From assembly GCA_038244685.1 (NCBI GenBank), contig JBBRTD010000001.1, positions 166,392 through 230,391 of the forward strand: a stretch of DNA of 64,000 nucleotides. The letters are read 5' to 3'. Positions 9,910-12,604 of this stretch are shown piece after piece (the stretch's first letter is position 1; each line of letters begins with the position of its first letter). A model generated the notes under the pieces. The model did not search any database and was not told the origin of the DNA. It was given only the letters and a program-made list of their open reading frames with translations. The translations under genes and the position numbers were made by a program. The stretch is from Minisyncoccia bacterium (lineage in GTDB: Bacteria; Patescibacteriota; Minisyncoccia; Phycocordibacterales; UBA9973).

Positions 9910-11547
9910 CTAAGACAATAAAGTTTTTATTCTCGCTTTAATATTTTCATAAACAAGACTTAATCTTTGTTGAGCAATCAATGTTAATTGAGCAGTATGA
10001 CCAACCGCGTTCCTCATGGGTTTATATTCAACTGAATCTCTTACCAAAGAATTGGTATTGGGTCGATTCACAGAACCATCAACAACTCTTGCAAGAAAAT
10101 CCATCCCCAAATAATCTAAATTATCTCTTTTTTCTCTAATTTTAAAACTAATATTTGCCTCTCCCATACGTACTTGTTCTCTTGCTTTCCATTCATCTAT
10201 TTCCACCTGTGCTGGATTAGTTAGCGGAATTTTTTGCTCTCTGATATATCTTCTTACTAAATTTTCAGACAAAAAACAATCAACATATGAGGGTATATTA
10301 AACTCTGCATCAGGTCTTAATTCTTTAACCCATAAATCAGTTGGACAATCCCCATCAACTTTATAATCTTTTGCAGAAAAATTAAATAGGCTAAGTGCTT
10401 TTCTTTGTTTTGTTATTATATCAATATCTCCATCTTCACCTATTTCAAGACGTAATTTATCCCATTCCTGACTTAAATTATTTAAAATTTTATCTTTTAA
10501 AACCTCAATTAACTCTTTAAACTTCTTATCTCCAGGGATTATACTTTCTCTGCTGGTTCCAAATCTATCACTATTTTTTGTATCATCAAGTTCATCATAA
10601 TGAATTTGTCCATAAAGATAACTAGCTATATGCCTTGTAGAAAAATCTGGGAGATGCCTCAAAATATCTCTTTCTCTTAATCTCCCATTAACAAATAAAT
10701 CAATTCCTGCTTTTTCCTCAGACCCAGAAACTTTTAAATATTTAGGTTTTTCTACTGTTGATATAAAACCACTAATATTTAAATCAGTTAAAATATTAAT
10801 ATGGTCTTTTTTCAAATTAAGTAATGTATCAATATATGGGTCTTTTATTTTATTAATTATCCATAAAAACTGCGACTTACTTGAAAGGTCTTTTAGGTCC
10901 TCAAGGGTTACCTTTTCACCATTAATAAATATATTAAAAGTAGGGTCTACTAATGAAAATCTAAAATACAAAGCAATTAATTTTTTTAAATAAGGTATTG
11001 TATTTCTTAGGTCTTCTTTTATATTATCAAATCTTATAATTGTTCCATGATTATGCTTTGGGGTATAATCATTAAATAATTCAATCTTAATTTTCCCAAG
11101 TGAATATTTATCTGGTTTTAAGTCACGCTTTATGGCTTTTGTAAGTTCTGAATTATCAATAACACCCCCAACATAATCCGTTTTAATAGTTTTAGATATT
11201 ACACTAACTTTATCAGCACAAGAAAGTAATGCTAATTTACCAATACCTTTAGCTCCTATGTATGGTCTTTTCTTTCCTGTAGATAACATACCGAACTCCT
11301 TTCTCTTAGAATAACCAACTTTTAGAAATTTACTTTTGAAATCAGTTGAATTCATTCCATCTCCATCATCTTTTATAATTAACAAACTATTATCAACATC
11401 AATCTTAATCCAAACATTGTTTGCATTCGCATCCCAAGAGTTGGAAATAGCTTCACCAAGAATGGTAATAAAGTTTCTATATAAATTTCTACCTAGATGA
11501 TTCAAGACACTCAAAGAAATTTCAAACTTAAATTTTTTATTTTTCAT
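9910..11547 (-). CDS. GHKL-superfamily (HATPase_c, MORC/MutL/Hsp90-like) ATPase, likely the partner/effector component of an R-M-like system
   Basis: Bergerat-fold motifs: N-box LGEAISNSWDANA, G1 box IKDDGDGM, G2-like GAKGIGKLALL. The 4-bp overlap with the upstream methyltransferase stop implies an operon. Confidence 0.7.
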   Translation of the reverse strand: MKNKKFKFEISLSVLNHLGRNLYRNFITILGEAISNSWDANANNVWIKIDVDNSLLIIKDDGDGMNSTDFKSKFLKVGYSKRKEFGMLSTGKKRPYIGAKGIGKLALLSCADKVSVISKTIKTDYVGGVIDNSELTKAIKRDLKPDKYSLGKIKIELFNDYTPKHNHGTIIRFDNIKEDLRNTIPYLKKLIALYFRFSLVDPTFNIFINGEKVTLEDLKDLSSKSQFLWIINKIKDPYIDTLLNLKKDHINILTDLNISGFISTVEKPKYLKVSGSEEKAGIDLFVNGRLRERDILRHLPDFSTRHIASYLYGQIHYDELDDTKNSDRFGTSRESIIPGDKKFKELIEVLKDKILNNLSQEWDKLRLEIGEDGDIDIITKQRKALSLFNFSAKDYKVDGDCPTDLWVKELRPDAEFNIPSYVDCFLSENLVRRYIREQKIPLTNPAQVEIDEWKAREQVRMGEANISFKIREKRDNLDYLGMDFLARVVDGSVNRPNTNSLVRDSVEYKPMRNAVGHTAQLTLIAQQRLSLVYENIKARIKTLLS

Positions 11548-12604
11548 ATTGTTCTATATGATTTATAATACTTTTCCCGATAACCGATCCAAGTCTAACA
11601 GGAACAGCATTACCAATAAATTTTGCAACCTTACTCATTATGAGTGGTTCTGAAGAAGGAAAAAATTGATAGTTATCTGGAAATGTTTGGAAAATAGCTG
11701 CTTCTCTCAAACTAATAGCTCTGTCTTGTGTGGGATGTCCATATCTTCCATTACCTAAACCAACACATTGAGTTGTCATTGTTGGAGATGGTTCATCCCA
11801 ACGCATACGTCCATAAACAGAACCCATGTATGTTTTACCAGACTCCTTTTTGTGACAATCTAAGACTAGCTTTTTATTCCAACTATGAGCATCCCCACCA
11901 TTGTGTGGAGTAGCTTTAATTCTTTCTAAGTTAATTGGTGCTAATTTTCTAGCCCTGTGCAATGGGTCTTTTTTGCTAACTTGTCCATCTTTTAAAGGTT
12001 CTAAATGTTTTATAACATCTCTTACTGTAACCTTTTTATCTTTGTGAGTTCTTTTTATTAATTGTATTTCTCCAAGTTTTGAGGCTAGTAAAACAAGTCT
12101 TCTTCTTTTTTGAGGAACACCAAATTCAGATACATCTACAACCTCATATTTATATTTATACCCATTATCTTTTAGTGTTTGTATAAAATTTGTAAAGGAA
12201 GGATACTTATTCTCAACAGCAAGATTGGCTACATTTTCCATAGAAACAATATCGGGTTGAGTTTCTGCTATTAGTTGTGCAAATTTTTCTAATGGTTCTA
12301 ATTGTTTTTCTGTAATATCATTAAGATTTAATTTAGAATACGGCTGACATGGGGCGCAACCCGCTAAAACTCTAATTATTCCTTTTTCTTTTCCAAACAA
12401 ATTGTTTATGTCATTAGCTGTAACTTTCAAAATATCATTATCAATAAATTGAGTTTTATTATTGTATTCATAACCATACTTACAAGTTGAGTCGTTATCA
12501 ATACCGGCAACAACATCAAGACCTTCTTTAATAAGTCCGTGTGTTAAGCCTCCAATACCACAAAATAGATCAATAACTTTAATCTTAGAATTATTTTTTT
12601 TCAT
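11537..12604 (-). CDS. dcm: DNA (cytosine-5)-methyltransferase
   Basis: C5-MTase motifs: I (VIDLFCGIGGLTHG), IV (GCAPCQPYS), VI (ENV in SMENVANL), IX (QTFPDNYQF), X (GNAVPVRL). Confidence 0.9.
   Translation of the reverse strand: MKKNNSKIKVIDLFCGIGGLTHGLIKEGLDVVAGIDNDSTCKYGYEYNNKTQFIDNDILKVTANDINNLFGKEKGIIRVLAGCAPCQPYSKLNLNDITEKQLEPLEKFAQLIAETQPDIVSMENVANLAVENKYPSFTNFIQTLKDNGYKYKYEVVDVSEFGVPQKRRRLVLLASKLGEIQLIKRTHKDKKVTVRDVIKHLEPLKDGQVSKKDPLHRARKLAPINLERIKATPHNGGDAHSWNKKLVLDCHKKESGKTYMGSVYGRMRWDEPSPTMTTQCVGLGNGRYGHPTQDRAISLREAAIFQTFPDNYQFFPSSEPLIMSKVAKFIGNAVPVRLGSVIGKSIINHIEQYEK

Follow-up and report, generated by a model that had tools for sequence, protein, structure and literature searches.

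We analysed a stretch of 64,000 nucleotides from a Minisyncoccia bacterium (Patescibacteriota; assembly GCA_038244685.1, contig JBBRTD010000001.1, positions 166,392 to 230,391 of the forward strand), referred to below as the window, in which two overlapping genes for a C5-cytosine DNA methyltransferase and a GHKL ATPase lie downstream of the transfer-messenger RNA (tmRNA) gene. Both genes are on the minus strand, with the methylase (11537..12604, 355 amino acids) as the first gene of the operon and the ATPase (9910..11547, 545 amino acids) as the second, at the positions given in an earlier reading of the bare sequence (hereafter the original prediction). That reading put the overlap of the two genes at 4 bp; coordinates, sequence, and gene calls agree instead on a shared stretch of 11 nt (ATGAAAAATAA, 11537-11547). 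The features of the module and its immediate flanks are listed below, where L091 and L092 denote two full-length members of the BbrUII/HgiDII restriction enzyme family that were fetched from plasmids as controls.

11537..12604, minus strand: C5-cytosine DNA methyltransferase of the M.HgiDII/M.BbrUII type (PF00145, TIGR00675, 45-47% identity to the partners of L091/L092)
10438..11547, minus strand: GHKL (Bergerat-fold) ATPase plus middle domain, residues 1-370 of 545 (NF050001, PADLOC REase_II, HATPase_c_3, Foldseek)
9913..10437, minus strand: all-helical, probably HEPN-like C-terminal domain, residues 371-545 (invariant R512-[N/D]-x3-H517-T518, Y421/E428/N429/R432)
9910..9912, minus strand: stop codon of the ATPase gene (open reading frame call)
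12617..12644, minus strand: promoter-like site TTGAGA-16-TATAAT just 5' of the methylase start codon (11/12 consensus matches)
9818..9866, no strand assigned: long AT-rich hairpin with 23-nt arms, 96% complementary, an inverted repeat 3' of the ATPase stop

Because the promoter scan returned fewer sites than expected by chance (13, against 18.5 in shuffled sequence), the TTGAGA-16-TATAAT site is no evidence by itself. At the other end of the operon, the 9818-9866 hairpin is followed on the minus strand by the T-run TTTTAATAA, and it is likely the operon terminator, possibly a bidirectional one; both elements fit the terminator of its own that the module had been credited with.

The methylase matches the Pfam family DNA_methylase (PF00145) over profile positions 1-323 of 324 (E 2.6e-58; 198.4 bits with a cut-off of 22), and it scores 136.7 bits on TIGR00675 (dcm), above the cut-off of 100.65. 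The C5-methylase motifs I (FxGxG), IV (PCQ), VI (ENV), VIII (QxRxR), and X (GN) are all present, here as FCGIGG, APCQ, ENV, QKRRR, and GNAVP, and they are invariant in our methylase alignment (A5). The end-to-end match and the motifs confirm the Dcm-type enzyme of the original prediction. In addition, the protein is 45-47% identical from end to end, target-recognition region included, to the methylases that adjoin the BbrUII/HgiDII enzymes in L091 and L092. Judged by its sequence, the first gene is thus shown to encode an active-looking 5-methylcytosine (m5C) DNA methyltransferase of the M.HgiDII/M.BbrUII type.

The second protein matches HATPase_c_3 (E 5.9e-15) and carries the three Bergerat motifs (ExxxN, DxGxG, GxxGxG) as EAISNSWDANA at residues 32-42, IKDDGDGM at 58-65, and GAKGIGKL at 98-105, so that the ATPase and the quoted motifs, and with them the GHKL ATPase plus Dcm-type methylase operon in overlapping frames, were borne out. 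Residues E32, N36, D39, D60, and K104 are invariant among 40 diverse relatives, and G62, G98, G101, and G103 are nearly so (38-39 of the 40). A genuine MutL or HtpG, which the original prediction had named as the case that would speak against it, was checked and ruled out: the protein reaches ~25 bits where the cut-offs are 180 and 371, and only the ATP-binding motifs align. The best-matching family was NF050001, 'BbrUII/HgiDII family restriction enzyme', to which residues 6-370 align over profile positions 1-365 of 659 (E 9.8e-85). The full 659-position profile is not covered, and the score of 285.4 bits lies below the 550-bit family cut-off. PADLOC REase_II models likewise match the N-terminal part of the ATPase only (E 6e-43), and PADLOC would score proteins of this kind as type II restriction enzymes from that part alone. 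In Foldseek the ATPase model, which is of moderate confidence (mean predicted local distance difference test score (pLDDT) 75.8), aligns over 410-470 columns with the N-terminal and middle domains of Hsp90/TRAP1 and with the MORC3 ATPase. The profile matches show that the first 370 residues share homology with the N-terminal portion of BbrUII/HgiDII, which are type II restriction enzymes. Of note, the names now given to these proteins in annotation are 'ATP-binding protein', 'DNA mismatch repair protein', and 'HSP90 family chaperone'.

The remaining third of the protein was where the original prediction had suspected, at residues ~400-545, a hidden nuclease of the PD-(D/E)xK or HNH kind. Modeled from a diverse alignment, residues 371-545 come out as all-helical with high confidence (pLDDT 91.6, predicted template modeling score 0.82), and PD-(D/E)xK and HNH folds are therefore excluded; HEPN proteins match the model best. 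Csm6 and HepT rank first in Foldseek, though without significance; the structural support for a HEPN fold is consistent but marginal. It gains weight from the sequence, where R512-N-A-V-G-H517-T forms an Rx4H motif in which the arginine is followed by a polar residue, as is typical of HEPN, and where the first long helix carries invariant residues (Y421, E428, N429, and R432). In all 40 relatives R512 and H517 are present and position 513 is N or D, and the motif is also invariant in a further alignment (A2). These 40 relatives are only 26-42% identical in the C-terminal domain, and the motif residues of the ATPase are equally conserved; since the key residues of both sites are kept at such divergence, the ATPase and the C-terminal site would both seem to be functional. 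We consider a HEPN-like fold probable on the combined strength of model and motif.

Which HEPN family this would be is a separate matter. No significant profile match linked the window domain to any defined HEPN family (Ymh PF09509, Swt1 PF18731, and others), and HEPN_Swt1 was matched weakly by 2 of 31 family members, with a best E of 0.006. Membership of Ymh was considered and is supported neither by Pfam on the domain nor by two profile comparisons. Ten additional divergent members, run at full length against Pfam, had no match in the C-terminal part, and a profile of the domain found nothing meaningful among PDB sequences. When 1.84 billion representative proteins were searched with the domain, only 174 relatives were recovered, nearly all of them C-terminal in proteins of ~550 amino acids or in fragments of such proteins. 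The domain, apparently of a four-helix type, is specific to this family, absent from Pfam, and not detectably related to Ymh in sequence. Some homologues (P0191, P0203, P0208, P0214, and P0108) have a Cys-rich, zinc-ribbon-like insertion (CxxC…CxxC) between helices of the C-terminal domain.

The control proteins put this C-terminal domain in perspective. L091 and L092 score 779 and 651 bits on NF050001, both spanning the whole profile, and their C-termini have a '…D-I-x-Y…E-L-K-R' signature together with a weak match to Shedu SduA_C, which indicates a predicted DNase end of the PD-(D/E)xK type. The window protein lacks such a D…ExK C-terminal domain, and both it and its homologue on a plasmid (L009) match NF050001 over positions 1-368 at most. 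True members of the BbrUII/HgiDII family and the window system share the same layout of an m5C methylase followed by an overlapping GHKL protein, their methylases are similar over the whole length as given above, and the first ~370 residues of the GHKL proteins are homologous at ~30% identity. They differ in that the members are ~650 amino acids long and end in the D…ExK Shedu-like domain, whereas the window protein has 545 amino acids and ends in the all-helical HEPN-like domain. The methylase, and the ATPase over its first two thirds, are therefore orthologous to the parts of a proven restriction-modification (R-M) system, and the exchange concerns the effector end only. A Neisseria gonorrhoeae locus (L010), in which methylase, GHKL, Ymh, and Vsr follow one another and which is frameshifted, shows the same effector exchange, there with another HEPN-type domain.

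This pairing of genes is conserved over a wide range of organisms. A methylase gene lies directly upstream of the ATPase gene, usually overlapping it, in 16 of 16 independent contexts, namely the window, L003, L004, L006, L007, L009, and ten viral contigs. The sources include Paceibacterota (L003), Anaerolineales (L004 and L005), a JGI metagenome contig (L006), an anaerobic methanotrophic (ANME) archaeon (L007 and L008, both with a Vsr gene downstream of the pair), and a conjugative Paracoccus plasmid (L009). The pair is found on 11 IMG/VR contigs, with the methylase upstream in all ten complete ones. Identity among full-length homologues from Patescibacteria, Chloroflexota, Marinimicrobia, and archaea is 57-75%, with ~60% between the proteins of Patescibacteria, Anaerolineales, and ANME archaea, and the flanking genes are different in every context. 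These comparisons show the pair to be a self-contained, horizontally mobile two-gene operon.

Additional genes lie near the module in some cases. In L003 (3080-6008) an NgoPII-type enzyme and a second m5C methylase are directly upstream of the module, in L006 (4111-4935) an Mrr-type nuclease is directly upstream, and the surroundings in both are small defence clusters. In the IMG/VR contig L093 (3068-4954) a second GHKL paralogue of 628 amino acids separates the methylase from the GHKL-HEPN gene; its ATPase part is 27% identical, its C-terminal domain is different and unassigned, and an HNH-like gene lies upstream. A TIR domain in this paralogue was suspected by eye and was not confirmed by Pfam, so we make no claim of it.

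Parts of this picture have been described before. R.HgiDII was reported in 2008 as a GHKL N-terminal domain with an unassigned C-terminal domain, in a study that also listed four other GHKL-containing subfamilies of putative restriction enzymes, one of which, R.NmeAIP, ends in Pfam Hypoth_Ymh (PMC2441816). Iyer et al. placed such GHKL proteins, under the name 'paraMORCs', in R-M neighbourhoods (PMC2292703), and Anantharaman et al. assigned Ymh, which occurs in fusions with paraMORCs, to the HEPN families and suggested that the GHKL-Ymh(HEPN) fusions in R-M neighbourhoods act in the manner of PrrC/RloC (PMC3710099). GHKL/paraMORC proteins with nuclease-type ends beside m5C methylases, the HEPN version included, were thus already predicted in 2008 and 2013. 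In the original prediction the ATPase had been called an uncharacterised partner, which overstates the case, as its N-terminal two thirds go with the BbrUII/HgiDII enzymes (NF050001) and GHKL-HEPN fusions beside m5C methylases were known in silico (PMC2441816, PMC3710099). A search of the accessible literature turned up no experimental work on any GHKL-HEPN member. What is new here is a C-terminal domain that is outside Pfam and not detectably akin to Ymh, in a system of which the rest is orthologous to BbrUII/HgiDII, which makes the swap explicit.

The module can be compared with several characterised or previously described systems. The R.NmeAIP/NgoAXIII-type proteins (GHKL with a C-terminal Ymh (PF09509) HEPN domain) correspond to the paraMORC-Ymh proteins of PMC3710099. 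As seen in L010, they have the same architecture and neighbourhood as the window system, with an m5C methylase, a GHKL ATPase ending in an RNxxxH domain, and Vsr in that order, and they have the motif [F/M]-R-N-[P/A]-V-x-H in common with it. The ATPase parts, however, are only ~28% identical, and the C-terminal domains are without detectable sequence kinship, that of the window giving no PF09509 match. In VcSduA/paraMORC3 (GHKL ATPase plus DUF4263 PD-(D/E)xK; Shedu type I-D), an N-terminal GHKL domain and a clamp-like middle domain control a C-terminal nuclease-type effector, and defence against phage requires both the ATPase and the nuclease residues (PMC12137116). By analogy this result supports the general scheme of a GHKL domain controlling a C-terminal effector, although VcSduA is a single gene without a methylase and its effector is a DNase-fold domain. 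The anticodon nucleases PrrC/RloC resemble the window protein in that an NTPase controls a HEPN RNase at the C-terminus, and PrrC has a functional tie to an R-M system (PMC3710099). They differ in that their ATPase is an ABC ATPase unrelated to GHKL, and in that PrrC is found inside a complete type I system whereas the methylase is the sole partner here.

Altogether, we favour the view that the pair is an R-M-like defence module with a swapped effector that acts as a methylation-gated RNase, a reading that we hold to be about evenly poised and of which we infer the mechanism. The unconventional R-M or defence system of the original prediction thus remains the best reading after the analysis. 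In this proposal the logic of R-M would be kept and the effector exchanged. The methylase would mark the host's own sites, and the ATPase dimer would clamp or scan DNA in the manner of MORC/MutL-type GHKL proteins and respond to incoming DNA whose sites are unmethylated. Dimerisation driven by ATP would then join two HEPN-like domains into a composite RNase site, and cleavage of RNA (tRNA, rRNA, or mRNA) would halt translation, so that the infected cell would be arrested instead of, or besides, the invader DNA being cut. The pair may also act as an addiction module, like ordinary R-M systems. The proposal extends the PrrC/RloC analogy of PMC3710099, but without a separate restriction enzyme; none would be required, because the two genes are the only constant across contexts. 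That the pair is an R-M system which does not restrict DNA at all, with a GHKL clamp that senses unmethylated sites and an ATP-driven dimerisation that activates a HEPN RNase as a methylation-gated abortive-infection switch, is put forward more tentatively, with its chances somewhat short of even.

Several observations weigh against the favoured view. Its closest characterised relatives cut DNA. Residues 371-545 gave no Pfam match even at E 10 and no significant match to a Pfam HEPN family, and hhalign comparisons with a Neisseria Ymh sequence and with a small Ymh alignment (5 homologues) reached E 0.24 and 0.34 with only the RNxxxH motif aligned. That the ATPase reads the methylation state or a specific DNA sequence is something we infer. 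GTCGAC, the site of the named BbrUII/HgiDII enzymes, occurs 2 times where 2.2 are expected in the window, which is too small for this count to inform.

The main rival to the methylation-gated RNase is an ordinary type II R-M system, in which the GHKL protein would be a DNA endonuclease like R.HgiDII/R.BbrUII and the helical C-terminus would cleave DNA, recognise DNA, or dimerise without cutting RNA. Much of the evidence given above is what this explanation expects: the N-terminal homology is to a curated restriction-enzyme family and PADLOC labels that part REase_II, the methylase is orthologous to those of true BbrUII/HgiDII members, the layout with overlapping genes is the classic one, and the archaeal copy has Vsr downstream. 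Yet the D…ExK domain of the true members is missing, the domain in its place is all-helical with an Rx4H motif, and nowhere along the protein is there a match to a nuclease family of Pfam, NCBIfam, or PADLOC. No HEPN domain is known to act as a DNase, which also counts against this rival, and the HEPN domains described in PMC3710099 are mostly RNases. We therefore regard an ordinary R-M system as a serious contender but a rather doubtful one.

The GHKL-HEPN protein could also be a 'suicide' nuclease of the second line, dependent on a conventional restriction enzyme encoded elsewhere, as PrrC is on EcoprrI, with the methylase belonging to that other system or being an orphan. The same model was put forward for paraMORC-Ymh fusions (PMC3710099), and it would accommodate the restriction enzyme and methylase upstream in L003, the Mrr-type nuclease in L006, and the second GHKL paralogue in L093. 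It does not sit well with the window, L004, L007, and L009, where the pair stands alone among unrelated genes, nor with the linkage of methylase and ATPase in overlapping frames as the sole constant feature of all 16 contexts, and we think it unlikely. The idea that there is no defence role, and that an orphan regulatory methylase and a MORC-like ATPase read or organise methylated DNA for epigenetic or nucleoid control, draws on the fold resemblance to the MORC3 ATPase and on eukaryotic MORCs acting on methylated chromatin (PMC2292703). A housekeeping regulator, however, would hardly be spread in patches over phyla, plasmids, and viral contigs and be absent from close relatives, an invariant nuclease-type motif is present, and the nearest sequence family is a restriction enzyme; we consider such a role very improbable.

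One methylase plus GHKL chassis is known with a DNase end, in BbrUII/HgiDII, and with at least two HEPN-type ends that are unrelated to each other; if the methylation-gated switch is correct, these would be natural effector swaps on one DNA-sensing platform. R-M is defined by DNA cleavage, and an exchange of DNase for an RNase-type end on a proven restriction-enzyme chassis, in a module that is widespread and strongly conserved, would link R-M and abortive infection mechanistically. The module would also offer a simple two-gene test system. It bears on the way in which GHKL/MORC ATPases turn the methylation state of DNA into an output, a question that is open for eukaryotic MORCs too.

The module lies in a larger insert downstream of SmpB (8709-9173) and tmRNA (9179-9571), both on the plus strand. 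SmpB identities of 85-89% place the organism with Candidatus Nomurabacteria/Paceibacterota in the Patescibacteria.

About 9738..15020, no strand assigned: insert of ~5.2 kb absent from syntenic relatives (two-gene module, RNA-like gene 12895-13070, degenerate tmRNA 3' end 13869-13914, open reading frame for a secreted protein of 216 amino acids)

In the relatives L037, L019, and L027 the order is FtsH, SmpB, tmRNA, a conserved element of ~130 nt, and a HAD-hydrolase gene, with nothing between the last two; the hydrolase gene is that at 15043-16053 of the window (PF00702), and L037 is collinear for another 8 kb. None of 18 close relatives carries the module at this locus, so that it is accessory and not core, as had been proposed. 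The region downstream of tmRNA is variable among other relatives too. The original prediction regarded it as a tmRNA island hotspot, and this stands as far as the ~5.2 kb insert in a variable region is concerned; the marks of integration are less clear, as an integrase is absent and the tmRNA end is repeated in degenerate form only. Between 9572 and 15040 no integrase-sized open reading frame was found besides the module and the 216-amino-acid one, which belongs to no known family, and neither a clean attachment site nor clean direct repeats of the tmRNA 3' end were found for the insert. At 13869-13914 (compare 9563-9608) the final 9 nt of tmRNA and the terminator hairpin that follows them recur as a degenerate (~79%) copy, perhaps left behind by an earlier integration. 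The 10-nt repeat GGTCCCGCCA occurs in the window at 9728-9737 and 14992-15001 only, and is not significant by itself, with 12 of 100 shuffles giving at least two matches.

The original prediction further saw the cassette as bracketed by GC-rich structured segments, which turned out to be of different kinds. The segment at 9611-9740 (plus strand; 9613-9740 in the original prediction) follows the tmRNA terminator directly and is kept in several Nomurabacteria relatives, including ones without the module. It is predicted to fold into three hairpins within a closing stem, with compensatory changes at 18 of 42 predicted pairs (5 sequences), and it starts with a 5' end (GUGGAGAUG) complementary to the 3' end of tmRNA. 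By these comparisons it is a conserved host element, not the edge of the insert. The second segment (12860-13070, plus strand; 12900-13070 in the original prediction) is a separate candidate small RNA gene inside the insert, with the RNA-like gene itself at 12895-13070, a promoter-like site TTGACT-17-TAGAAT extended by TG, an intrinsic terminator at 13041-13061, and a fold of very high stability (z = -5.1; 0 of 200 shuffles as good). It has no copy in the loci of relatives, and its absence beside the homologous cassettes in L003 and L006 shows that it does not belong to the cassette. A further RNA-like element at 14896-15003 (plus strand) has a 3' module (…GAUA.G…ACUC..GGUCCCGCCA) in common with 9611-9740. 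In L017 and L024 it comes directly after an element of the 9611-9740 type, and the 5.2 kb insert therefore sits between the two; a 30-nt core of it recurs elsewhere in L014, L016, L020, and L028. The listed open reading frame of 385 amino acids that starts at 14896 probably over-extends into this element. Rfam matched no family in any of the three segments, and readings of RNA-like segments as signal recognition particle RNA or as hammerheads were considered by eye and dropped for want of any model match. At 13093-13159 (minus strand) there is a perfect-looking hairpin with 22-nt arms and a weak match to Rfam '23S-methyl' (E 0.023) that, at 33 bits, stays below the gathering score of 50.

Three minor observations concern the insert and its surroundings. 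The open reading frame of 216 amino acids (14007-14657, minus strand) begins with a signal-peptide-like sequence; it falls into no Pfam family, and the loci of relatives lack a homologue. A contig from another sample (L001, SRR19962014), compared over 9218-15432, is identical to the window from ~9546 to 15432, with 47 mismatches that apparently all fall in the tmRNA body (~14% divergence), a pattern that points either to recombination at the 3' end of tmRNA or to an assembly that is chimeric. Finally, the window has a tRNA-Ile with a UAU anticodon at 6436-6510 (plus strand), an uncommon bacterial way to read AUA.

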